From positions 64,001 to 128,000 of IMG/VR virus record IMGVR_UViG_3300013212_000088: a DNA stretch of 64,000 nt; one strand, written 5' to 3'. The notes below the pieces were generated by a model. It saw only the letters and a list, made by a program, of their open reading frames with translations. It was not told the DNA's origin and did not search any database. The position numbers and the translations under genes are program-made. Shown piece by piece: positions 10,776 through 59,271 of this stretch (within the stretch, counting starts at the first letter, position 1; the number at the start of each line of letters is the position of its first letter). The stretch comes from a virus (taxonomy: Duplodnaviria; Caudoviricetes).

Positions 10776-11286
10776 ATTCTCTAGTCCAATCTACAATAAA
10801 CTCTTCATAATTCCAGTCATCGTAAGGATCTATTTTATCCCAAGTTTCTTTGACGACATAAAAGTTTAGTTTATTAAGTATACTCATAATTAAGCCATCA
10901 ACTATACTACATATTGAATAATATCTTCTGTGTTTTGAATCGATGTAATGTAGGGTGCAATATAAAATATCACCCACTTTCGATTCTAACACTACTTTTT
11001 CAATTGAAGAATTATTATCTTTTAAATGTTTATTGAATATTTGATAAATCGTATGTATATGAGAGTTTTTGTGTAAACTTTTAAAGAAAAATGAGAGCAT
11101 TGACCCTTCATATGCATTAAGAATTATTGCAACATCTTTATCATCACCCTCAAGTAAAGCATACATTTTACTTTCAGGGCTTATTAAAATGTGCTGTAAG
11201 TCAACTCTTAAAAGGCTTAACTCTTCAATATCATTTAAGTTTTTTGCCTTTATAGTTATTTTTTTGTTTGGTAAATCTTCCATCAA
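10774..11286 (-). CDS. Divergent bifunctional nuclease-like protein (DUF151 family)
   Basis: YALLEGDDKDVAIILNAYEG.ML...HTIYQIF......IEKVVLE...ILYCTL...CSIVDGLIMS..NKLNFYV parallels the DUF151 pattern, but the family D-x-R-P-S-D motif reads ICSIVD. Confidence 0.6.
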   Translation of the reverse strand: MMEDLPNKKITIKAKNLNDIEELSLLRVDLQHILISPESKMYALLEGDDKDVAIILNAYEGSMLSFFFKSLHKNSHIHTIYQIFNKHLKDNNSSIEKVVLESKVGDILYCTLHYIDSKHRRYYSICSIVDGLIMSILNKLNFYVVKETWDKIDPYDDWNYEEFIVDWTRE

Positions 11287-11687
11287 TGATTACAGCCTTC
11301 ATTTTTACAAGGCTTGCAGCTACCACAAAGTTTATTGTTTAAATAATGAGATGCAGCTACTAAAAATGAACCAAATACTAACACGACAGTAAATAGATCT
11401 ATTTCAAAACCATGAACTGATGAATGACTATGCTGTAATTTTCCAATAACAATTAACATGATTCCAGAACTTAAATAGGCAAATGTTTTTAATGATTTAT
11501 GCTTCCTATACCCAAAACATAAACTGCTAACACCTAAGATTGCTGAAAATACAAGTAGCCCCCATTCGAATGTTTCACTTACAAAAAGAGACAGACCAAA
11601 TACTGGGACTAATGTTATTACCAAAGGCATAACTAAGCAATGAATAGCGCATGAAACGCTCGAAAACATACCTACTTTATCTATCAT
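11283..11687 (-). CDS. MerC-family metal-binding membrane protein
   Basis: DKVG...S.SCAIHCLVMP in TM1, four hydrophobic helices, GYRKH loop, HSHSSVH loop, ASHYLN, and a Cys/His tail CGSCKPCKNEGCNH. Confidence 0.8.
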   Translation of the reverse strand: MIDKVGMFSSVSCAIHCLVMPLVITLVPVFGLSLFVSETFEWGLLVFSAILGVSSLCFGYRKHKSLKTFAYLSSGIMLIVIGKLQHSHSSVHGFEIDLFTVVLVFGSFLVAASHYLNNKLCGSCKPCKNEGCNH

Positions 11688-12301
11688 TTTAATTGGTAAC
11701 TCTTTCTATGAAAATGCTGAAGACCATGTTCAGCAACAGCTTCTTTATGTTTAGCAGTAATATAGCCTTTATTGCTTATCAAATCATACTCTGGATGTTC
11801 TTCATGCAATTTAGCAAGAACTCTATCATGATGTACTTTAGCAATTATACTAGCTGCAGCTACAGCTAATGAAGTTGAATCTGCTTTAGGTATCATCAAT
11901 TGAGGTTTTAAATTATTCTTGGGACCTTGATCAATTACATATAAATGAGGTAATTCATCTATATATTTGGTTGCTTTAGATGCTGCGCTTACCATTGCAT
12001 TTAAATTAGCTTCTTGTATGCCAATTTTGTCTATATCTTCTGCGGATATTTCAGTCACTCCATAAGAAATACAGCTAGTAATAATTCTATCGTAAAGCTC
12101 TTCTCTTTTCTTCTGGGTAAGTTTTTTAGAATCATTGACCCCTTCTAAAGTTTGTCTTTCATCTAAAACCACACAAGCAGCAACTAAGGGACCAGCTAAA
12201 GATCCACGGCCACATTCATCAATTCCAGCAATATATTTCCCGTATTTGAGCCTAAGTTCATCATCAAATTTTTTTAATTCAATATATGCTTGTGATTTCA
12301 T
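11684..12301 (-). CDS. rnhB: Ribonuclease HII
   Basis: IAGIDECGRGSLAGP, DSKKL, VIDQG, KADSTS..VAAASIIAKV..D, NKGY.T..H, HRKSY. Confidence 0.93.
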   Translation of the reverse strand: MKSQAYIELKKFDDELRLKYGKYIAGIDECGRGSLAGPLVAACVVLDERQTLEGVNDSKKLTQKKREELYDRIITSCISYGVTEISAEDIDKIGIQEANLNAMVSAASKATKYIDELPHLYVIDQGPKNNLKPQLMIPKADSTSLAVAAASIIAKVHHDRVLAKLHEEHPEYDLISNKGYITAKHKEAVAEHGLQHFHRKSYQLK

Positions 12302-14064
12302 TGCATTTCTTTCTTTGCTTTATCATGTATTTTTTTAGTCAAGAAATCAATAAGTTCTTTTCCAGATTCTACAAGGGAACTTAACAATTCAATATTTTCT
12401 GAAAAATAATCAGATTCAATGCTTTCTCTTAAATCATTAAGTTCTTTAATCTCATCACTATTTAATAATTTAGTATCAATCAATTCAAACAATTGGATTT
12501 TTAAAGATGTAAGCCAATCTCTCAACGAAGTTATTAATTTAAATCTTTCATCTTCAATTTTATTTTCTTCAGCGTCAAGTAACATTTTAGTCATTTCTTC
12601 TTCAGATAATGAACCAGATAATACCATGACCTTCTCATTATTGGTAGCTTCATCAATTGCTTTAACAGTTACGATTCCATTTGCATCAACATCAAAAACT
12701 ACTTCAATTTTTGGTGCGCCTCTTCTTACTGGTGGAATATTATCTAGCTTAAATTCACCCAAATAATGATTGTATTTTGTTTGTGGTCTTTCGCCTTGAA
12801 ACACTTTAACATCAACTGAGGTTTGATTATCTTCAGCTGTTGTAAAAACTTCTCTATATTCTGTAGGAACTTGAGTGTTACGTCTAATCATTGCATTCAT
12901 AACACCTCCTAAAGTTTCAATCCCTAAAGAAAGAGGAGTAACATCTAACAAAAATATCATCTTATCTGAATTGCCTGAAAGAACAGAAGCTTGAATTGCA
13001 GCCCCTAATGCTACAGCCTCATCTGGATTGATAGTTTTATTAGGCTTTTTACCAACCCACTCTTGTATTTTTTTAGAAACAAGTGGAATGCGAGTAGAAC
13101 CACCGACAAAAACCACTTCATCAATATCTTTAGCCTTCAAGTTAGCATCGTTAAGTGCTTGTTCAATACAGTCTTTTGTTTTGTTTAAAATTAATGTTAT
13201 TGCGTTTTCAAACTCTTCTCTTGAAACTACTACAGAAAGGTTTACTGGTTGCCTATTTCTGAAAGCAAACATTGGAATATTAACATTAGTGCTTTCTAGT
13301 TGAGATAAAGACTTCTTTGCCTTTTCTGACGCTGTTCTTAGTCTGGATTTTTGTTGATCAGACAAATCTTCTATAAGTTTTTCATTGTAATCATAATCAA
13401 ACTTTAAATTAAACTTATCTAAAATTATCTGACCAAGAATTTTATCAAAATCAGCTCCACCCAAACTAGTGTTGCCTGAAGTAGAAAGTACATGAAAATC
13501 TACTCCGTCAGACAATTTAAGTACTGTTACATCAAAAGTACCACCACCAAGATCATATACTAAAATTGTTGAGTCGTGAGTTTTATCCAGGCCATAAGCT
13601 AGAGAAGCAGCTGTAGGTTCATTAATAATTCGTAAAACATTAAGTCCAGCAAGTTCACCAGCAGCTTTCGTTGCCTTTCTTTCGTCGTTGTTAAAGTAAG
13701 CGGGAACTGTAATTACTGCATCTGTTACTTCCTGTCCTAAATAGTCTTCTGCGTCTCTTTTAAGTTTTTTGAGAATCTCAGCTGATATTTCACATGGAGT
13801 AAATTGTGAGTTATCAAAAACGTAAAGTTTATCGAATCCTGAAGACATTTTACGCTTGACTAGTCTGATTACTCTGTCTGGATTTTCTTCTTCAAAATCA
13901 ACAGCTAAATCACCAACCATGCGTGTAAGATTCTCGTCAATTGCAAAAACCGAGGGTGTGATTCGATTCCCTTCACAATTGGGAATGACTTCAGCTACAC
14001 CATTTTTTACATAAGAAACTACAGAAAATGTACTACCTAAATCTATGCCAATTGAAAGTCCCAT
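12298..14064 (-). CDS. dnaK: Hsp70 chaperone DnaK (short form)
   Basis: IGIDLGST, TVPAYF, INEPTAA, DLGGGTFDV, VGGSTRIP, NPDEAVALGAA, LLDVTPLSLGIET, FQGER. Lacks the ~23-aa subdomain-IB insert and the disordered C-terminal tail. Confidence 0.95.
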   Translation of the reverse strand: MGLSIGIDLGSTFSVVSYVKNGVAEVIPNCEGNRITPSVFAIDENLTRMVGDLAVDFEEENPDRVIRLVKRKMSSGFDKLYVFDNSQFTPCEISAEILKKLKRDAEDYLGQEVTDAVITVPAYFNNDERKATKAAGELAGLNVLRIINEPTAASLAYGLDKTHDSTILVYDLGGGTFDVTVLKLSDGVDFHVLSTSGNTSLGGADFDKILGQIILDKFNLKFDYDYNEKLIEDLSDQQKSRLRTASEKAKKSLSQLESTNVNIPMFAFRNRQPVNLSVVVSREEFENAITLILNKTKDCIEQALNDANLKAKDIDEVVFVGGSTRIPLVSKKIQEWVGKKPNKTINPDEAVALGAAIQASVLSGNSDKMIFLLDVTPLSLGIETLGGVMNAMIRRNTQVPTEYREVFTTAEDNQTSVDVKVFQGERPQTKYNHYLGEFKLDNIPPVRRGAPKIEVVFDVDANGIVTVKAIDEATNNEKVMVLSGSLSEEEMTKMLLDAEENKIEDERFKLITSLRDWLTSLKIQLFELIDTKLLNSDEIKELNDLRESIESDYFSENIELLSSLVESGKELIDFLTKKIHDKAKKEMQ

Positions 14065-14071
14065 ACAATAA

Positions 14072-14077
14072 ATTATA
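14072..14077 (-). promoter_or_regulatory. -10 box placing the dnaK ATG at about +1 (leaderless)
   Basis: The minus strand reads tgTATAATttattgtATG; no SD upstream of dnaK. Confidence 0.45.
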
Positions 14078-14079
14078 CA

Positions 14080-14436
14080 TTATTCGGGATTTTCATCAGG
14101 TAGCACAGTTCCTCCAGGCTTATAACCCTCCATTAATGAATGCAATACATCAGACTCTTCAAGTCTTTTTTGCATATTTTTAATTTCGTTTTTAGTTATA
14201 GGCTTTTCAGAGTTGATCATTGAAGGGTCTCTGTGTAAGGAACTTTTGTACTCATGAGCCATAGAAATTAATTGGACAACAGCAAAAGTGTCCTTACATT
14301 TTACACAACGCATGACAGCATATATCTCCACTTCTGATTTAGGAAGCCAACCTAAATGTGACTCCCTAAAGAATGGATGTTTGCAAGTTCTATTAAGACA
14401 ATTTTTTGGCTTTCCAACAATGGTTTGGTGATGCAT
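14080..14436 (-). CDS. Hypothetical Zn-finger protein
   Basis: CLNRTC ... RCVKC cysteine pairs; AGGCAGGT SD-like site. Confidence 0.7.
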   Translation of the reverse strand: MHHQTIVGKPKNCLNRTCKHPFFRESHLGWLPKSEVEIYAVMRCVKCKDTFAVVQLISMAHEYKSSLHRDPSMINSEKPITKNEIKNMQKRLEESDVLHSLMEGYKPGGTVLPDENPE

Positions 14437-17237: not shown

Positions 17238-17267
17238 AAAGAAACGGGAAATATTTCCCGTTTCTTT
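17238..17267. terminator. Rho-independent terminator formed by a perfect 30-bp palindrome
   Basis: AAAGAAACGGGAAAT|ATTTCCCGTTTCTTT, with T-rich runs following on both strands. Confidence 0.8.
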
Positions 17268-17735: not shown

Positions 17736-17948
17736 TTAACAATCCTTAGCAACTACATCATCGCCTTCATCAGACGAATCAAGGTCAAGATCAACATCAA
17801 GAGTTAGGGGAATTACAAGCTCGTCCTTAATTGGTTCTTGCTTCTTTTCATCTGCCCAAACCACTCCTTCATTAGATGCAACTACTTCGTCACCTTCAGC
17901 ATCTGTAAACTTCTCAATCTTGCCTGTGGCCCTCTTAATCATTGCCAT
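17736..17948 (-). CDS. Small acidic hypothetical protein
   Basis: GAGG SD; acidic C-terminus DVDLDLDSSDEGDD. Confidence 0.65.
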   Translation of the reverse strand: MAMIKRATGKIEKFTDAEGDEVVASNEGVVWADEKKQEPIKDELVIPLTLDVDLDLDSSDEGDDVVAKDC

Positions 17949-17959
17949 AATTTTTTACC

Positions 17960-18934
17960 TCAATTATTTAAAGTAGAAACATATTTAGAAAGAATATCTT
18001 CCTGTTCTGCAGTTAAACTGTTAGGATAATTATACAGAAAAGTAATAACAAACTCTCCCCTTGAAGAATCTGGTCTTGGGATACCTTCATTTTCAAACTT
18101 GAGTAAACTATCTAATCTTGTAAGCTTTTCAACCGTAACTTCTTTTTCAACGCCATTTGGAAATTTGATATTTTTCTTTGTTCCAACTAAAGCTTCAATC
18201 GGGTTTAACGAAAGCTTATAAAATATATTACCCTGGTTATCGAAATCAAAATCTGGATGCGGATTTAAATTAAACTCTACGATAGCTTTACCAGGCGGTT
18301 GGTTAGGATTTTCTTGATTACCGCCATCAGGAATTATAATTGCAGAGAAAACTTGGCCTAATTTTAAATGTAATGGTCTTTGGATAGTTTCATTTACAAG
18401 TCCATTTGCATGACATTGTCCACAAATAACATCTAATTTCCAACCCCTACCTCTACAATCATGACAAGGGCCAAGTATCTGTTCAAAAAAGAAGCCAGCA
18501 TGTTGCATTGTGTGCTTGTTCTGTCCAGATCCCATACATGTTCTACAAACCTGTTTAGCGCCAGAACCACCTTCACCCTTACAAGATTTACAAAAAACTC
18601 TTCTCTGGTACATAACATTTTTTATATCTTCTTTAAAAAGATCTTCTAATGACAAATTAACCTTAAGAGTTATAGGGCTGTTGAAAGATTGTGTTTTTAC
18701 TACGTTCCAAGAGTCGAAAGGGTTGTGATGCTGAGGAGGTTGGTCGTATCTACTTTTTGAATTGGGATCACTTAATACAGAATAAGCTTCATTAATTTGC
18801 TTAAACTTGTCCTCGGCATCTGGTTCTTTATTGACATCAGGATGAAACTTTTTGGATAGATTTCTGTAAGCTGATTTTATTTCGTCAGAAGTTGCGTTTC
18901 TACCAACTCCTAAAATTGCATAATGATCTTGCAT
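17960..18934 (-). CDS. dnaJ: Co-chaperone DnaJ (J-domain, Zn-finger, C-terminal domain)
   Basis: DHYAILGV, KFHPD, AYSVLSD, four CxxCxG/AxG repeats and a C-terminal GIP..GEF motif; the G/F-rich region is essentially absent. Confidence 0.93.
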   Translation of the reverse strand: MQDHYAILGVGRNATSDEIKSAYRNLSKKFHPDVNKEPDAEDKFKQINEAYSVLSDPNSKSRYDQPPQHHNPFDSWNVVKTQSFNSPITLKVNLSLEDLFKEDIKNVMYQRRVFCKSCKGEGGSGAKQVCRTCMGSGQNKHTMQHAGFFFEQILGPCHDCRGRGWKLDVICGQCHANGLVNETIQRPLHLKLGQVFSAIIIPDGGNQENPNQPPGKAIVEFNLNPHPDFDFDNQGNIFYKLSLNPIEALVGTKKNIKFPNGVEKEVTVEKLTRLDSLLKFENEGIPRPDSSRGEFVITFLYNYPNSLTAEQEDILSKYVSTLNN

Positions 18935-18940
18935 ACTTAA

Positions 18941-18948
18941 AATATACA
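18941..18948 (-). promoter_or_regulatory. -10 box placing the dnaJ ATG at about +1 (leaderless)
   Basis: The minus strand reads tgTATATTttaagtATG; no SD. Confidence 0.4.
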
Positions 18949-18950
18949 GG

Positions 18951-19631
18951 TTATCTATTTATTTTATTAAGTAAATCTATGATCTTGTTAGATGGGCAAG
19001 CCGCATTCTCACCAACCCCAACATCAGCATGTTGTCCTGTTACGCCCATCACGCAACCTGCAACTGTTCCGTCAGTGAGAACTAGCATTCCGCCAGAAGA
19101 TCCCTCAAGAATATCTGCATCGAAAAACAAAATATCTTGCCATGCCAAACTTGGAGCTTGTTCACCTAATGCTTGGTGAACATTAGTAATTCTTCCAACT
19201 GTAGCAGTGTCATGAAAACCCTCTGGAGATCCTAAAACTGCAATAATATCTCCAACTTCTACTGTGTCAGAGTTGGCAAGTTTCACAGCTGGGATGGTTT
19301 TGGCAATAGGTGTAGATAAAACAATTCCAGCATCATAATTTGGATCGGATATTTGAATTACCGCTGGATATAAACTTTCACCATCAAAGGATACTTTAAT
19401 CTCATGAGGTTTTTTTGTCAATATTGGAGGCACAACATGAGAGGCAGTGACTATGTAACCTTCCCCTACATGAAAACCACTACCAGTCCAACTTTGATCT
19501 CCAGCATCTACATAAATAGTGCAAGAAGACTGAATTGCTGTTTGAATAATTTTCTTTACAGGGTCTTCAATCTTTTGCCCTAACTTCATTCTCCATGCAA
19601 GAGAATCAGCGTTGAATGAAAACAAACTCAT
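18951..19631 (-). CDS. Trypsin-like serine protease (S1, HtrA-like core without PDZ or signal peptide)
   Basis: GSGF, VTASHVV (His), YDAGIV (Asp), LGSPEG, DADILEGSSGG (Ser). Confidence 0.85.
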   Translation of the reverse strand: MSLFSFNADSLAWRMKLGQKIEDPVKKIIQTAIQSSCTIYVDAGDQSWTGSGFHVGEGYIVTASHVVPPILTKKPHEIKVSFDGESLYPAVIQISDPNYDAGIVLSTPIAKTIPAVKLANSDTVEVGDIIAVLGSPEGFHDTATVGRITNVHQALGEQAPSLAWQDILFFDADILEGSSGGMLVLTDGTVAGCVMGVTGQHADVGVGENAACPSNKIIDLLNKINR

Positions 19632-20089
19632 TTATTTATAACCTTGTACATGATAACAGATTTTTGAACTGCTCCGAATCTTCTTGAGTCATCTGAGTTT
19701 TCAGAATTATCTCCAAGCACATAAACATAACCCCTAGGAACAACATGCTTCATTACTAAAAAATTATGATTACCTTCATAATACTTTTCAGCCATTACTC
19801 CTATATGTTGATCAAATACTTCAACTTTTTCAGAATTAAAACTCATCAAAGAATAATAAACATCATTTTCAACAAACTTTATTCTTTTTATAATAGTTTC
19901 GTTATAATCATTCTTCAAAACAACAATATCATTTAAAGAAAAATTATTAGTTCTTACTGCCAAAAGTAATTGATTATTTTTGAGGCTAGGTAACATAGAA
20001 TTACCAATAACCACAACTACTTTAAAAGGTATAGCCCATAAAGTTAAAACTACTAACAAACAAACAATTAATTTGATATATTTTCTCAT
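19628..20089 (-). CDS. lepB: Signal peptidase I (S26)
   Basis: N-terminal TM anchor, GNSMLPSL (Ser), IIKRI (Lys), VLGDNSENSDDSRRFG. Confidence 0.88.
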   Translation of the reverse strand: MRKYIKLIVCLLVVLTLWAIPFKVVVVIGNSMLPSLKNNQLLLAVRTNNFSLNDIVVLKNDYNETIIKRIKFVENDVYYSLMSFNSEKVEVFDQHIGVMAEKYYEGNHNFLVMKHVVPRGYVYVLGDNSENSDDSRRFGAVQKSVIMYKVINK

Positions 20090-20152
20090 TGCACTTCTCC
20101 TATTTGCAGAAGAAGAGCTTAAAGATTTTTGTTTTTTGCCTTTTGGCTCTTT

Positions 20153-21172
20153 TTAAATTAATTTCTCTGGTAATGGCTGTGGATCCTCAACTATTTGAGT
20201 AACGACAGACGCCTTATAATGATCTGGATTAATATTAGCAAAATTAGGAACGCCGTATCCCCATTGTTTAATATCACCAGCAGTTATAAAAGGACTATCA
20301 TCAGCTACAGTTTTTAAAGCTTGCATCATCTCAATGTAATTCTTGATTAATGGTACACCTGCAGTTTTTCTTGAGTATGATAAAAGTAAAGCGCAAATAC
20401 CAGCCATGAAAGGTGATGCTTGGCTTGTTCCTGACATTTTTGCATAACCATTGTTGAAGTGTGTTGAGTATATGTCAACACCAGGCACAGCTCCATCAAC
20501 TTCCTGACCTCTAGAAGAAAAGTGTGCCAAATTACCATTTTTGTCTAAAGCAGCTACAGCTATAACTTCATCATAATGTGCTGGATAATTAACTTTTCCA
20601 GAATCATTACCGGCAGCTGCAATAATAATGATGCCTTTAGAAACAGCTTCTTTAATTAAATTATGAATCTCTCTTGGCGGTTCTGAAGGAGCGCCTAAAG
20701 ACATGTTGATAATATCGCAATTGGCATCGATAGCAAATCTTAAACCTTTTGCAATTGCTTCATATGATCCAGAGCCATCACTATTTAAAACCTTGACTGG
20801 CAATATGTGGCAACCAGGAGCAACGCCTACAATGCCTCTGCCATTTTCTCTCGCAGCAATGATACCTGTAACGTGAATGCCGTGACCGCTTCCATTGTCA
20901 AGTCCAGTACCTTCGCTTGTAGCATCAAGCATAGTTCCCCAAACTTTCTCTAAATCGTTATGCGGTACGATGCCAGTATCTAAAACACCAATTAAAATGC
21001 CTTCACCTTTAGAATATTGCCAAAACTTTTCAATATTACAGGTCATCATTCCCCAATCTTTCTTCTCTCCATCAGAAAGAGAAGTCATAACATGGGTAAC
21101 TTTCAAATCCTCTTCTGGAATAAAGTCTAATTGATCTTTAAGGGAAACTTTTTCTCTTTCGATTGCTGCCAT
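20153..21172 (-). CDS. Subtilisin-family serine protease (S8), intracellular (ISP-like)
   Basis: VLDTG (Asp), HGIHV.GII (His), AAAGN oxyanion Asn, GTSQASP (Ser); no signal peptide, short N-terminal extension containing FIP. Confidence 0.92.
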   Translation of the reverse strand: MAAIEREKVSLKDQLDFIPEEDLKVTHVMTSLSDGEKKDWGMMTCNIEKFWQYSKGEGILIGVLDTGIVPHNDLEKVWGTMLDATSEGTGLDNGSGHGIHVTGIIAARENGRGIVGVAPGCHILPVKVLNSDGSGSYEAIAKGLRFAIDANCDIINMSLGAPSEPPREIHNLIKEAVSKGIIIIAAAGNDSGKVNYPAHYDEVIAVAALDKNGNLAHFSSRGQEVDGAVPGVDIYSTHFNNGYAKMSGTSQASPFMAGICALLLSYSRKTAGVPLIKNYIEMMQALKTVADDSPFITAGDIKQWGYGVPNFANINPDHYKASVVTQIVEDPQPLPEKLI

Positions 21173-21203
21173 TTTCTTAATCTCCTTGAAATACTATATA
21201 TAA

Positions 21204-21232
21204 TATTCTGAATGCAAGCAGATTAAATCCTA
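21204..21232 (-). promoter_or_regulatory. Phage-specific promoter TAGG-N19-AGAATA
   Basis: Minus strand TAGG atttaatctgcttgcattc AGAATA upstream of the S8 gene (AAGGAG SD). Confidence 0.55.
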
Positions 21233-53922: not shown

Positions 53923-56900
53923 TTAGGTGTTTAAGAACTTTATAAACATATCTTGAATATCGTCTTTTACTCTTTTCTCTGTTTTTCTTATTTCATCTGA
54001 AGTTCGTCTTTCATAATATTCTGTAACTTCAAATATAATTTTCTGTTTTAAAATTATAATGTCTTCTTGTGTAACATTATAAGATTTTAATTTTTGTTCT
54101 ATCTTCTCAAAAACTGTTTCTGTAATTTCAAGAATGTTTATTCTTTCAATTTCAGTGATTGTTGTTTCTGTTTCTCTAATAATTTTAGAAGTATTTGAAG
54201 AAACAGTTGCACCATCATTCAAATTATAATAGTTTGACTCATTCTTGGTTGATGAGTAATCTTGATTTAAATTATTTTCAACACTATTATTTACAACATT
54301 ATTTGTGGTTGAATTAATATTATTTGAGCTATTGTTAAAAGTTCTTTGATCAACATTGTTAACATTATTTATTTCGCTTTCAGAGTTGATTTCTTCAACT
54401 ATCTTATTAACTTCTGTTTTGACAAAGCTATTCCAAATCTTATCGATTCTAAGATTACTTACATCTACATCTTCTTCATTATTAATTACTTCAAATGAAC
54501 TGTTTGTATTTTTGAATGTTTGTTCAGTTGTACTTGTTGTATTAATCTTTGAAATATTATCAGGTAAGCTTATGTTCTTTGAATTATTATCGTAGTTTAG
54601 TACACTTAACTGGCTATAGTTTTGCGCACTGTTATTTGTAATTTTTTGACTTATAACTTCATTAATTTCATTTTGAAAATTATCCAAAATAACAGTATTT
54701 AAAAGAGAATAATTATTTGTAGATTTTAAAACTCTAGCTAGATCATTAGATAATTCAGTGTTATTTTGTTGGTTTAAAATATTGTCAATATTTTCATTAA
54801 ATATTTCTGTTTTTAAAGTATTTTTAATTAAATCAGATGCTCTACTTACAACTTGTGAATTAAGAATATTTTGATTTATATAAATGTTGTTATTTAATGT
54901 TTGGGTAATAACTTTTTGAATGTCATAATTTTGTATATTTAGTTCAGCTTGTTCAATTAAGTTTTTTGTCAAATAGTTGAAAGTTCTCTCCATGTTAAAG
55001 ACATTATAATTTTTCATTAAGCTATTTAGAATAGAATCTCTAGTTGCGCTCATGAATGAAATTGAACTTACAATATTTTCAACTTTTTGCTGAACTGAAA
55101 GACTATTGTTCAAACTAATAAGCTTTACAGTTTCCAAAAGATTTGAATATGTTTTGGTTTCATAATTTTCAAATCTTTGTTTAACCACCTCTTCAGAATA
55201 AATGTTATTAAGTTCTGTAATTATATTATTTTTTTCCACAACATTCATATTGGAAAAATTAGCATTAGTAGATGAACTTTGATAAACACTTGAAATATTT
55301 TGTTGTGTTACATTAGAGAAATTATTTATAACATTTTGCAGACTGTTATTGGATTCTAAAACATTATTTAAAACCTGCTTTACTTCATTATTCAAAAACA
55401 CAGAATTAGTATTTAATTTTTCTTGAAAATTAGAAAAAGTCAAAAGTTCTTTATTTTCTTTGACAAAACTTTTGTATTCATTATTTTCAATTAAAGTGTT
55501 GGCAATAAAATCAATCTGCTCTAATTTAACTTGATTTATTTTATTTTCAAAATTATTTATAACTTGCTTTAATTCATTATAATTTTCAATATTTTCTATT
55601 TCATTTCTAAGCGTGTTAAGTATTTTAATTTCATTTTTTACTTCAGAAAATTCAGTGGTATATTTAAGCGCTGTCTCCCTTGCTAAAATATTTATTTCTT
55701 CAAAATTATTTATTGTGGTTGAGCTTTCTATAAGATCTACTTTAAATGCTAAATTATTCAAATAGTTTGCAAAATAATTTAATTGATTGTTTTCATTAAT
55801 TTCATAATTATTTGCTATGATATTTCTTTGAATAACATTTTTAAGTTGATTGACATTACTGGAATTAAAGTTATTTACATTTAATGTTTTAAGTACATTT
55901 GAGATATTTTCTATCTTAATATTTTGGTTACTTAAAATATTTTCAGCTGTGGATAAAGTTTCATTTAAGAATTGTTGCTTTAAATTATTTACATAATTTT
56001 TATTTTCTTCTTGGCTATTATTTTTGACAGAATTATAAATCTCATTAATAAACTCTGAGTTTTCATTTACAATTGTGTTTTCATTCAAACTTTGATTAAC
56101 ACTTAAATTGTTCAATTCAGTATTGATAGTATTAAGTATTTGCTCAACATTTGTAGTAGCGTTCAGTTGCTCGGTTATATTATTTACCGCAGTATTAAAT
56201 TGTTGAGATAAATTAGAGTTATTTATTTGATTTAAAACTGATATATTTTTAAGTTCAGAATAGTTTTTATTTTCAATTAAAGTCTTTGCCACTAATTCGC
56301 TAGTAATGTTTGAGAGATTGTTAACATAACTGTCTATATTTTCAACTATAGAATTATTTAAAATATTATCGCTTGAAGAGTTTGTAATAATATTTTTGAT
56401 GTCTACAAATGCATTCTTCACTTCTTCAAGGTTATATTTATTCAACACTTCTTTGATTTCGGTAAGTGTGGCGAAGCTATTTACAGACTCTTTTTTCTCA
56501 ATAATATTTTTAATTTCACTTACAAAAATATAATCATCAAAAGCAGAATTATATACGTTCTCTTTGATTACATTTAGAGTGTAGTTAGAAATAGTTTCAT
56601 TCTGTCTGATTAAGAAATTCTTGACTTCTTCTTCAACAATATTGCTAGAAGTTATTAAATTAAAAAACTTATTAGTAATATCGGTATTTTGAGTCTTAGT
56701 TAATCTTTCTTGTATTTCAGAAACTACTTCATTATTTGGTGCAAGAATAGATATTTTGTCAATAGTGTTTTGGAATGTTTTAAGTATATCTCTAGTGCCA
56801 ATTAAAGACTGAGAAATATTTGTCAGCTCAATTGAAGTTTTATAAACCTTGTTGATAAATGATTCAATATTGTTATTTTTTATATCAGTAAATCTATTCA

Positions 56901-59271
56901 AAGACTCGTAGGCTGAAAGATTACTAACATAATTTTTATTACTTAACTTAGTTTCAAGATTATATTGAGCAAGATAATGTTTAATCTTGTTTATAATGTC
57001 ATACTTGCTTATATTAGAATTAAAAATATTAGTTATTTCTTCATATTGTTTTTGAGAAATTACCGAGCTGTTATATTCTTCTTCAATTACTCTATTTGTG
57101 TTATTAATAATTTCGTCACCCAAAATATTGATAGCGCTGCTCAATGAATTATCTATCATTGTCAAACTTTGTAATGAGTAATCTAAATTATTATTATTTT
57201 GAACTGTAGTATTAACAGTCTTGATATTATTTAACAGATTTGTAATTGATTCATTTTCTGTGTTTATCTCTATATCAGACGCTTTGTAAATAATATCTTT
57301 GGTGAGGTTTGTAATACTTTCATTAATTGTATTTTCAAAGTTTTGAACAATCTGTCTATTTTCAGTAATGCTTAAAGATTTTAAATTAAAATTGTTAACT
57401 TCTTGATTAATAATATTTTGAATAAAGTTTTTAATTTCGTTATTATTTATCAACTGATCTATATCTTGATTGAGTGTTGAAATAATAACATCTACATTTT
57501 CATTTTTTGATATCGTATTTACAATATTTGATCGAATATTTTTTACATTTAGAGATGTTTTAAAATCAGTGAATGAGGAGTTAATGTTATTTACTACATA
57601 TTTTTTAACATTGTTTAAAACTAAACTATTATCTAAATTTTGCAATTGGCTTAATGCGACACTTGAATAGAAGTAATTTGCATTATTTACAATTGAATTT
57701 TTATGCTGATTGTAAATATTTTCAATTTGCTGAATATAATCTACATCATTATTTGAAAAATTATTTTGATTAATGTACTGTGCCAATCTTAGCGCACTTT
57801 CATTTACAATTTGAATATTTAAGTTTTGAGTTATATAAGAAGACAATTCATTTCTAAGATTATTTACTTCTTTGTTTTGAATGTTTTGAATGTTTGCTAA
57901 AAAACTATTATATAAACTATAGTTGTGTAGTTCATTTGTTTGATTAATTACATTTTCAAGTGGAGATATAAAGTCTTTAAATGCATTAGATAATTGCTCA
58001 GTTTTAACTTCAGAAAATATATTTTTAATCTGTTGAATGGATTCTAATACAGAAACTAAATTAGTGTTATTTTGATTATTATTAACAATATTAATTATTT
58101 CATTTTTATAATTTTGAAATATGTTATTTTGTTCTAAAAAATCTTGTTCTGCCTTCATTATAATTTGTGGCAAAGTTTCATTTAAGTAAACATTCAATAC
58201 CTGAATTGTTTTCTCATCTTGTTTGTTTTCAAGTTTATTTACAATTACAGATTCAATTACTTGTTGAATATTTTTTACATCTTCAACATTATTTATCTCA
58301 TTTAAAATTTGATTCTTAATTTCTTCAATCTTATCTCCCTCAAAAACTGCTAATTCATTAACAATATTTTTGATAAGATTTTGTCTAAATTCTACTTTGG
58401 TGTTATTGAAGAATTGATTTACATCACTTGATATTTTAGACAAGTTTACTGTATTACTATTTAGTATTTTATTTTGAAACTTGACGTCTATGATTTCAGT
58501 TTTATTATTGTTTATTGAAAGAAAATCAATAGGCTGAGTATACTGAGAAATTCTTGTAGTTTTTACTGGCTTTTCAATTTGTATAGACTTAAAATCTTCT
58601 TTTGGAATATTTGTCTGTTGGTTTTTATTGATCAGTATAGATTCTGATGGTCTAGCTTCTCTTGTTATAGATGAAGTTTTAATTTCAATTGGTTTTGCAG
58701 CAATATTGTAAGCTTGGGAAACATTTTGAGTTTCATTATAAGACTCTGAAATATCTTGAGCTTCTGGAACTTTAATTTCAGGATTAGTTTTTTGAAGCAT
58801 TTGTAAAAATTCTTTTGCTTCTGAACTAATCATATAGTCTTCTTTCTTTGATGCTAGTTGCTTTACATTAAAACCCTTTTGATCTTTTTTATCAAAATCT
58901 GCAACATTCTTATATTTTGTTGGGCCTTCAGTGACTAGAAAATTGCTTTTAGAGTCTTGATATGACAAAAAAACAGGGTCTGGTGGTCGGTATCCACTAT
59001 AGTCATGCTTATTTGCTGGGGAATATCTTCGAGCTACACTAGAAGGGTTTTGAGTTAAGAAAGACTCTGATGATGAAATACTTTCACTGGCATCATTAGT
59101 ATTACCAGCAGTGTACTTTTCTGTTGGAATGCCTTTAGCTCTTACTGGAGAGCCTTGATTTAAGTGTTCAAATGAATCGTTCAAATCAAAACCTATATCT
59201 TTGATGTAAGAGAAAGCATCAGATAAATTAGAAATCTTGTCGTAACTCAACCATGATTTTTTGTTTTCCAT
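53923..59271 (-). CDS. Asn/Ile-rich helical protein (1782 aa), tape-measure candidate
   Basis: About 1500 residues dominated by N/I/S/E/Q/K, almost no G/P/W and no Cys seen; upstream of the hub-like gene. Confidence 0.45.
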   Translation of the reverse strand: MENKKSWLSYDKISNLSDAFSYIKDIGFDLNDSFEHLNQGSPVRAKGIPTEKYTAGNTNDASESISSSESFLTQNPSSVARRYSPANKHDYSGYRPPDPVFLSYQDSKSNFLVTEGPTKYKNVADFDKKDQKGFNVKQLASKKEDYMISSEAKEFLQMLQKTNPEIKVPEAQDISESYNETQNVSQAYNIAAKPIEIKTSSITREARPSESILINKNQQTNIPKEDFKSIQIEKPVKTTRISQYTQPIDFLSINNNKTEIIDVKFQNKILNSNTVNLSKISSDVNQFFNNTKVEFRQNLIKNIVNELAVFEGDKIEEIKNQILNEINNVEDVKNIQQVIESVIVNKLENKQDEKTIQVLNVYLNETLPQIIMKAEQDFLEQNNIFQNYKNEIINIVNNNQNNTNLVSVLESIQQIKNIFSEVKTEQLSNAFKDFISPLENVINQTNELHNYSLYNSFLANIQNIQNKEVNNLRNELSSYITQNLNIQIVNESALRLAQYINQNNFSNNDVDYIQQIENIYNQHKNSIVNNANYFYSSVALSQLQNLDNSLVLNNVKKYVVNNINSSFTDFKTSLNVKNIRSNIVNTISKNENVDVIISTLNQDIDQLINNNEIKNFIQNIINQEVNNFNLKSLSITENRQIVQNFENTINESITNLTKDIIYKASDIEINTENESITNLLNNIKTVNTTVQNNNNLDYSLQSLTMIDNSLSSAINILGDEIINNTNRVIEEEYNSSVISQKQYEEITNIFNSNISKYDIINKIKHYLAQYNLETKLSNKNYVSNLSAYESLNRFTDIKNNNIESFINKVYKTSIELTNISQSLIGTRDILKTFQNTIDKISILAPNNEVVSEIQERLTKTQNTDITNKFFNLITSSNIVEEEVKNFLIRQNETISNYTLNVIKENVYNSAFDDYIFVSEIKNIIEKKESVNSFATLTEIKEVLNKYNLEEVKNAFVDIKNIITNSSSDNILNNSIVENIDSYVNNLSNITSELVAKTLIENKNYSELKNISVLNQINNSNLSQQFNTAVNNITEQLNATTNVEQILNTINTELNNLSVNQSLNENTIVNENSEFINEIYNSVKNNSQEENKNYVNNLKQQFLNETLSTAENILSNQNIKIENISNVLKTLNVNNFNSSNVNQLKNVIQRNIIANNYEINENNQLNYFANYLNNLAFKVDLIESSTTINNFEEINILARETALKYTTEFSEVKNEIKILNTLRNEIENIENYNELKQVINNFENKINQVKLEQIDFIANTLIENNEYKSFVKENKELLTFSNFQEKLNTNSVFLNNEVKQVLNNVLESNNSLQNVINNFSNVTQQNISSVYQSSSTNANFSNMNVVEKNNIITELNNIYSEEVVKQRFENYETKTYSNLLETVKLISLNNSLSVQQKVENIVSSISFMSATRDSILNSLMKNYNVFNMERTFNYLTKNLIEQAELNIQNYDIQKVITQTLNNNIYINQNILNSQVVSRASDLIKNTLKTEIFNENIDNILNQQNNTELSNDLARVLKSTNNYSLLNTVILDNFQNEINEVISQKITNNSAQNYSQLSVLNYDNNSKNISLPDNISKINTTSTTEQTFKNTNSSFEVINNEEDVDVSNLRIDKIWNSFVKTEVNKIVEEINSESEINNVNNVDQRTFNNSSNNINSTTNNVVNNSVENNLNQDYSSTKNESNYYNLNDGATVSSNTSKIIRETETTITEIERINILEITETVFEKIEQKLKSYNVTQEDIIILKQKIIFEVTEYYERRTSDEIRKTEKRVKDDIQDMFIKFLNT

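Follow-up and report, generated by a model that had tools for sequence, protein, structure and literature searches.

A conserved operon of three unrelated serine proteases and a DnaJ protein in a clade of giant freshwater phages

We analyzed a 64,000-nt stretch of viral DNA, bases 64001-128000 of the 261,424-bp IMG/VR record IMGVR_UViG_3300013212_000088 (referred to below as the window), which originates from a giant tailed phage. On its minus strand lies a six-gene operon: a promoter-type box is followed by genes for a subtilase (S8), a signal peptidase I (S26), a trypsin-like protease (S1) and DnaJ, by two small genes (h70 and h152) and by a strong terminator (Table 1). An original prediction, made from the letters of the sequence, had described consecutive minus-strand genes for S8, S26, S1 and DnaJ, all with intact catalytic residues or an HPD motif, with an ATGA overlap between S26 and S1 and a DnaK gene 3.9 kb further on. 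The four genes were confirmed by open reading frames (ORFs) at these places and by Pfam matches, and both the overlap and the position of DnaK also held. The unit is, however, larger than was claimed, as h70, h152 and the terminator also belong to it. The catalytic residues of the three proteases and the HPD motif of DnaJ were read directly from the sequence and are invariant in the collected orthologues (13-15 further distinct orthologue sequences per gene).

We searched IMG/VR with S1, DnaJ and the S26 alignment and obtained 22 related contigs of 16-358 kb. The order giant gene-S8-S26-S1-DnaJ was kept in all 22 of them, as far as each reaches; the genes are thus neither scattered nor absent in relatives, either of which had been named beforehand as a result that would count against the original prediction. 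The common order continues from DnaJ through the 70-aa and 152-aa genes, a UvsW helicase gene and the gene for a 118-aa zinc-ribbon protein (h118) to DnaK. Behind DnaK follow RNase HII in some relatives, a MerC-like gene and a 170-aa gene and then, on the opposite strand, a 341-aa gene and a tube gene. Identity to the window proteins ranged from 99% down to 31% for DnaJ, 36% for S26 and 49-50% for S8 and S1. These comparisons point to a synteny that is old and maintained and that reflects neither recent copying nor chance clustering. In one relative ∼0.9 kb is inserted between S1 and DnaJ (L002:10679-11581), and the operon therefore tolerates insertion at this junction. The MerC-family membrane protein (window 11283-11687) was present in the DnaK unit of every relative reaching that far, while RNase HII was present only in some.

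Table 1. Features of the operon and of related genes in the window and in the remainder of the viral record
Feature	Position	Strand	Description
Intrinsic terminator	17238..17267	minus	13-bp stem and T tail; behind h152; closes the operon
h152, 152 aa	17284..17733	minus	One N-terminal transmembrane helix and a helical C-terminal domain
h70, 70 aa, acidic	17736..17948	minus	N-terminus M-x-M-(V/I)-K-R-A, C-terminus A-K-(D/N)-C
DnaJ, 324 aa	17960..18934	minus	J domain (E 1.1e-26), zinc-finger and C-terminal substrate-binding domains
S1 (S1C/HtrA-like) protease domain, 226 aa	18951..19631	minus	Trypsin_2 (Pfam), E 5.3e-17
S26 signal peptidase I, 153 aa	19628..20089	minus	Peptidase_S26 (Pfam), E 6.4e-17
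RNA hairpin	20084..20125	minus	Pairs Shine-Dalgarno and start region of S26; minimum free energy (MFE) -19.5 kcal/mol, z -3.9
S8 subtilase, 339 aa	20153..21172	minus	Peptidase_S8 (Pfam), E 3.8e-52
Two-box element AGG-N19-AGAA	21206..21231	minus	Promoter-like; in the 57-nt gap behind the giant gene; 33 nt ahead of the S8 start
Giant gene, 3056 aa	21230..30400	minus	Directly upstream of S8; PHROG matches to Ig-like module at residues 95-200; no Pfam match
DnaK	12298..14064	minus	HSP70, E 1.4e-176; start 3.9 kb past the DnaJ end
Partner unit h118 and DnaK	12298..14436	minus	h118 zinc-ribbon protein at 14080-14436; same promoter-type box
SLT-domain protein, 211 aa	G000:C1:45798-46433 (L051:1312-1947), outside the window	minus	SLT lytic-transglycosylase domain, E 7.6e-8

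The original prediction also placed a phage-type promoter ahead of S8. In this position we found the two-box element AGG-N19-AGAA, a pattern that occurs within 100 nt upstream of 20 of the 249 ORFs compared with ∼4.6 expected from its genome-wide frequency, usually at a distance of 28-46 nt from the start codon. The claim stands as far as this enrichment goes and is weakened by the looseness of the pattern. The ORFs preceded by the pattern include four in the head region (among them the protease-bearing 1408-aa gene), one giant gene and h118, which heads the DnaK unit; it was not found ahead of the helicase gene. A related two-box element was seen ahead of S8 in most relatives, and a generic sigma-70 promoter scan performed no better than on shuffled sequence. 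A promoter-type box common to the operon and the head genes fits an assembly-phase role. At the other end of the operon, a strong hairpin with a T-rich tract was present at the terminator position in 13 of 13 relatives, with at least three different stem sequences (judged by eye). A T-A-G-T-A-T-A-A-T box, without a Shine-Dalgarno sequence, lies 5-9 nt ahead of the DnaJ start in most relatives (e.g. L003:10664-10676), and the window copy is less canonical (window 17949-17959 and 18935-18950). This box suggests a second, internal promoter giving rise to a leaderless DnaJ message.

One interpretation of this arrangement is a single dedicated line in which DnaK and DnaJ fold, and S8, S26 and S1 trim, the 1000-3000-aa virion proteins encoded upstream. 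In every relative a homologue of the 3056-aa giant gene precedes S8 on the same strand, no terminator was seen that would separate this gene from S8, and the promoter-type box is shared with structural genes. Whether one such line can accommodate all the enzymes turns on the compartment in which each of them would act, and on the identity of the giant proteins.

S26 scored 73.8 bits against the NCBIfam model of bacterial signal peptidase I (TIGR02227), above the cut-off of 47. Its catalytic residues are Ser31 in G-N-S-M-L-P and Lys68 in K-R-I, accompanied by the box GDN...SDDSRRFG. The protein begins with M-R-K-Y-I-K and has a hydrophobic helix at residues 8-26, with the catalytic serine five residues after the helix. 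The Ser-Lys dyad, box E and N-terminal membrane anchor by which a bacterial type I signal peptidase (S26A) is recognized in sequence are all present. N-in, catalytic-domain-out is the standard layout of small Gram-positive-type signal peptidases; we predict that S26 belongs to the classical membrane-anchored Ser-Lys enzymes and that its active site faces outward from the cytoplasmic membrane. The closest solved structures are signal peptidases of Bacillus, Enterococcus and Staphylococcus; with SpsB and the Bacillus anthracis and Enterococcus faecalis enzymes (PDB 4WVH, 4NV4, 4ME8) S26 shares a single N-terminal anchor, the Ser-Lys dyad and boxes B, D and E. Like the Gram-positive-type enzymes it is small and lacks the extra beta-domain of E. 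coli LepB, and unlike them it is phage-encoded and forms a lineage of its own. A collection of 5.8 billion proteins contains ∼40 metagenomic clusters related to S26, with identities of 38-96% and with some members encoded on contigs as long as 363 kb; the next match is a Chloroflexota cellular enzyme at 29% identity. By this comparison S26 is not a recent capture. A protein search of GenBank phages yielded no convincing S26 homologue, the weak matches (22-29% identity) being to fragmentary or unannotated bacterial-looking records, and no description of a phage-borne signal peptidase was found in the literature searched.

An S26 homologue of ∼40% identity was also seen in a different setting in two other viral contigs (L038:8676-11720 and L040:8727-11687). 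The order there is a GH108 endolysin, a 195-aa protein, S26 and a tightly following 414-424-aa protein of no known family. Neither S8 nor S1 nor DnaJ was found beside S26 in these 20-kb loci, and the records to which they belong (29% and 19% complete) contained no DnaK match. The GH108 enzymes have no signal peptide.

In all 16 distinct leaders of S26 orthologues, which differ in stem sequence, the MFE fold pairs the Shine-Dalgarno sequence completely or for the most part, compared with one of nine leaders for S8 and five of 12 for h70. The hairpin lies in the spacer between S8 and S26, and its consensus pairs show compensating changes. The S26/S1 junction overlaps by 1 or 4 nt in most relatives, and since S1 is translationally coupled to S26 in most of them, the hairpin should hold down translation of both S26 and S1.

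S8 carries the catalytic residues D65, H97, N189 (the oxyanion Asn) and S250 expected of a subtilase (MEROPS S8), all four invariant in an alignment with 11 orthologues, and neither a signal peptide nor an I9 prodomain was found in it. Its best PDB matches were subtilisins and intracellular subtilisin proteases, with the extracellular ones scoring slightly higher. The extension ahead of the mature-subtilisin start is ∼24 residues long in most orthologues and 33 in the window protein. It contains the invariant residues F17 and P19 and the nearly invariant Q16 and I18 (window numbering; motif F-I-P-E); in most orthologues F-I-P falls at residues 7-9. The intracellular subtilisins of Bacillus and Planococcus carry an 18-20-residue LIPY/F pro-peptide with L-I-P-Y/F at residues 6-9, which covers the active site and whose proline shifts the scissile bond beyond the reach of the catalytic serine (PMC6220982). 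S8 resembles these enzymes (PDB 2X8J, 2WV7, 6F9M) in lacking a signal peptide and an I9 prodomain, in its full Asp-His-Ser triad and in a short extension at the N-terminus that bears a hydrophobic-Ile-Pro motif at about residue 7. It differs from them in having F-I-P-E instead of L-I-P-Y/F and an extension that is ∼5 residues longer (14 in the window protein). Because the F-I-P extension resembles the LIPY/F pro-peptide, S8 is most likely a cytoplasmic self-inhibited zymogen. Related S8 genes of 33-41% identity occur in large cultured phages of Bacillus and Moorella; the other three operon genes are not present at these loci, and F-I-P is missing in the two N-termini read.

S1 contains the His-Asp-Ser triad of the S1C proteases HtrA and DegP, with the histidine in TASHV and the serine in GSSGG. 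Its PDB matches are to HtrA/DegP, and its score against the NCBIfam Do family was below the cut-off. The protease-domain fold and the triad are those of HtrA/DegP (S1C); unlike these proteins, S1 has no PDZ domain, signal peptide or membrane anchor, and in this it resembles the stand-alone Trypsin_2 proteins of bacteria and viruses. The protein ends directly behind the protease domain. Since neither a PDZ domain nor an export signal was found, we assign S1 only as a stand-alone S1C-type protease. Both S8 and S1 are predicted to be cytoplasmic because no export signal was found in either.

The N-terminus of S1 bears a motif of its own. The extension before the first domain strand comprises 13-27 residues (∼18 in most orthologues) and ends hydrophobic-K-x-(S/G/A)-Q, with the lysine and glutamine invariant. 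The pattern hydrophobic-[KR]-x-[AGS]-Q occurs in the first 35 residues of nine proteins of this genome compared with ∼2.9 expected (4.1-fold, p = 0.0015); S1 is one of the nine carriers and a 170-aa ORF in the head region, adjoining the portal gene, is another. Because it carries this phage N-terminal K-x-S-Q tag, S1 probably either undergoes trimming by the head protease or is loaded into the head.

Such a tag also bears on a second interpretation, a host-directed set of enzymes in which S8 and S1 would destroy host proteins, for instance those of defence or regulation, S1 perhaps being carried in the capsid and injected, while S26 keeps up or redirects host export. All three proteases belong to broad-specificity families, and the K-x-S-Q motif is common to a small set of unrelated phage proteins and invariant in the S1 orthologues. 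However, S8 and DnaJ have no such tag, the promoter type is that of the structural genes and not of early accessory islands, and nothing points to a host target. What the original prediction had offered as its second option, a battery of proteases aimed at host defence, received no direct support, and the S1 tag leaves some room for it; we regard this interpretation as unlikely.

DnaJ contains the HPD motif and four Cys-x-x-Cys repeats, the domain set of class A (type I), but has a short Pro/Gln/His linker instead of the Gly/Phe-rich linker of that class. It scored 218 bits against the NCBIfam model DnaJ_bact (TIGR02349), below the equivalog cut-off of 377. Two further J-domain proteins are encoded in the genome (G000:C1:56254-56466 and 252910-253044), so that the single phage DnaK has three possible J partners. 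Matches to GrpE and to the ClpP Pfam family were absent from the 261-kb record. A search for DnaK homologues returned phage-clade proteins only, giving no clue to the host, and the phage DnaK lineage comprises >120 protein clusters. A 300-kb relative (G003, the record of L048) has two Hsp70 genes (116919-118595 and 254567-256276), one of which scores much higher against the family model; one of the two may be a separate acquisition.

Chaperones of this kind have been described in other phages. Moraphages, large uncultured freshwater jumbo phages, encode their own Hsp70 and J-protein, and either the folding of phage proteins or a part in counter-defence has been discussed as the function of this DnaK/DnaJ pair (Perez-Hernandez et al. 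2025, PMC12619734). The moraphage paper reports neither a subtilase nor a signal-peptidase gene, nor a fixed operon joining proteases to DnaJ; the word 'peptidase' occurs in it once, as the name of a core gene, and 'signal peptidase' is absent. Moraphages have T4-type head and tail core genes, whereas the head protease of the phage studied here is of another PHROG family (phrog_18299). Rki of phage RB43, to the extent that it is cited in the same paper, is a phage-encoded J-domain helper of the host/phage chaperone machinery; it is a single accessory protein, whereas here a near-complete class-A-like DnaJ is encoded in an operon with three proteases and accompanied by a phage DnaK. Each operon enzyme is a new member of a known family. 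As the original prediction had supposed, no described phage system with this arrangement was found in the literature searched.

Upstream of the operon, window 21230-61656 holds ten consecutive minus-strand ORFs of 328-3056 aa, which the original prediction had taken for tail genes. Pfam matched none of them and PHROG only two, leaving eight without any match; the module matched in these two is Ig-like and common to fibre, decoration and virion proteins. The designation as tail genes is therefore not borne out, and a virion role of the 3056-aa protein is presumed. No N-terminal hydrophobic segment was found in any of the ten proteins. Within this region, G+C content is just 23-24% at bases 54000-58000. 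The genome has a separate head-maturation protease domain (phrog_18299, E 1.2e-16) in the 1408-aa protein adjoining the portal gene, ∼88 kb from the operon. S8, S26 and S1 showed no match to the head-protease families of Pfam and PHROG and cannot be classed as prohead proteases on that basis. The S78 head-protease Pfam family gave no match in the 261-kb record, and neither did the S77 and S21 families, a result of little weight because the control genomes were also blank.

Virion proteins are made and assembled in the cytoplasm. Since the active site of S26 would lie outside it and could not reach them, a single virion-protein line does not fit, and the absence of N-terminal hydrophobic segments from the giant proteins (0 of 10) also speaks against it. 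Furthermore, S26 occurs without S8, S1 and DnaJ in the loci of the two other viral contigs, the S8 genes of the Bacillus and Moorella phages are sited among replication and nucleotide genes and not among structural ones, and tail identity of the giant genes is not established by the Pfam and PHROG matches. What remains of the fold-and-trim pipeline proposed originally is that its genes are real, co-oriented and syntenic and carry a head-type box; the location of S26, the existence of a separate head protease and the tail assignment all tell against it. We judge one dedicated line for virion proteins to be improbable.

The two small genes at the end of the operon are as conserved as the operon enzymes. 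h70, which lies behind DnaJ in every relative reaching that far, has no match in Pfam, PHROG or NCBIfam (Atlas score 0.75). Three of 12 members of the h152 family matched Pfam Phage_holin_6_1 (PF09682) below threshold (best E 0.038, 13 bits for the window protein; cut-off 24.9), three of 12 members matched a PHROG holin, likewise below threshold, and the Atlas features of h152 scored 0.92 against viral clusters whose members belong to the Phage_holin_6_1 family in 11-26% of cases. We treat this weak likeness to LL-H-type holins as a lead only. No endolysin gene adjoins h152, and its AlphaFold2 model (mean predicted local distance difference test score, pLDDT, of 52) is too poor to use. Two other roles considered for h152 were rejected: a TerB/DjlA-like tether, for which there was no family match, and a substrate of S26, as it has no small-x-small motif after its helix.

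Among the very few proteins of the record with an export signal is the SLT-domain protein, which has its catalytic Glu in Y-V-E-S-E-F and an N-terminal hydrophobic segment. It was the sole peptidoglycan-hydrolase match among the four families searched, with no match in the genome to Amidase_2, Amidase_3 or Phage_lysozyme. An IMG/VR search with it returned nothing beyond a near-identical contig; one orthologue in each of four large relatives was reached through their records, and all four have the N-terminal hydrophobic segment. The protein is therefore treated as a candidate exported or signal-anchored endolysin.

These genes are the basis of a third interpretation, an export and lysis accessory in which S26 processes or releases an exported lysis protein such as the SLT protein, h152 is the holin and the cytoplasmic enzymes are merely co-expressed; the operon would in this case contribute to setting lysis. 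In its favour are the S26 homologue two genes past the GH108 endolysin in the two other viral contigs, with the other operon genes not nearby, the convergent, sub-threshold holin signals of h152 and the conserved hydrophobic segment of the SLT protein. On the other hand, the GH108 enzymes beside S26 have no signal peptide, the cleavage motifs of the SLT protein are not conserved, all the holin evidence lies below threshold with an unusable model of h152, and the SLT gene is 37 kb distant from the operon. We give this interpretation a low probability. A more specific version, in which phage S26 would free a membrane-tethered exported SLT hydrolase at a time set by the leader hairpin, is a long shot; if true, such protease-triggered release would differ from the known signal-arrest-release endolysins.

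The window has 33.6% G+C and no tRNA genes, and ∼97% of its length is inside ORFs read with the standard code. Genes near the operon include gyrase B and A, a tail-tube-like gene, DnaK, RNase HII, the MerC-like membrane protein and the UvsW-type helicase, and the portal gene, the head-maturation protease domain and the large terminase are found ∼88-105 kb further along the genome. At least eight studies yielded metagenomes with near-identical DNA of this stretch, sampled from lakes, rivers, estuaries and sediments. A DNA search of GenBank phages gave nothing beyond short J-domain matches. No RNA dataset was listed as carrying the full length of the stretch. Metatranscriptome contigs contained a 170-nt piece (19962-20131) and a 177-nt piece (19685-19861) on S26, for which DNA carry-over is possible. 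The remaining pieces shown were 21-58-nt matches, mostly to conserved parts of DnaK and likely from other organisms. These pieces neither support nor contradict expression of the operon. A 322-aa ORF elsewhere in the record (G000:C1:249333-250301, minus strand) begins with the prepilin-type motif M-K-K-A-F-T-L-I-E-L-L-V. N-termini of this type are typical of type IV pilin-like proteins, and the ORF may be a hint to the host group or may mark a chimeric contig end.

We believe that the operon is best explained as one conserved transcription unit of a giant freshwater phage clade that adds protein-handling enzymes in two compartments, a reading to which we give about an even chance. The unit would probably be switched on together with the structural genes. 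In the cytoplasm, DnaJ would feed substrates to the phage DnaK, with the large phage proteins as obvious clients; S8 would be made as a zymogen whose F-I-P extension blocks the active site until it is removed; and the PDZ-less S1, given its K-x-S-Q tag, is probably either cut by the head protease or packaged into the head. S26, at the membrane, would cut exported proteins only, host pre-proteins or the phage SLT protein being candidates, while the leader hairpin would throttle translation of S26 and the coupled S1.

Several points weigh against this reading. Adjacency of genes alone is no proof of shared function. The promoter class is defined by a loose two-box pattern, and the 261-kb record is incomplete (∼73% by CheckV). 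The AlphaFold2 model of S8 has a mean pLDDT of 58, with residues 1-46 below 50, and is too poor to show docking of F-I-P on the active site. For S26, very few proteins of the record have export signals; orthologues of the SLT protein do not share its small-x-small candidate cleavage sites, and the hydrophobic segment of the protein may be an uncleaved signal anchor.

Chaperones encoded by phages were already known, as were single accessory proteases. The fixed operon of three unrelated serine proteases and DnaJ, the S26 hairpin and the phage signal peptidase were found in none of the literature or cultured-phage records searched. DNA from lakes, rivers, estuaries and sediments shows the phage group to be common, and its DnaK lineage has >120 clusters. 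The operon provides an entry to the question of how giant phages fold and process very large proteins, to whether phages interfere with host protein export and to how intracellular proteases are held in check until required.

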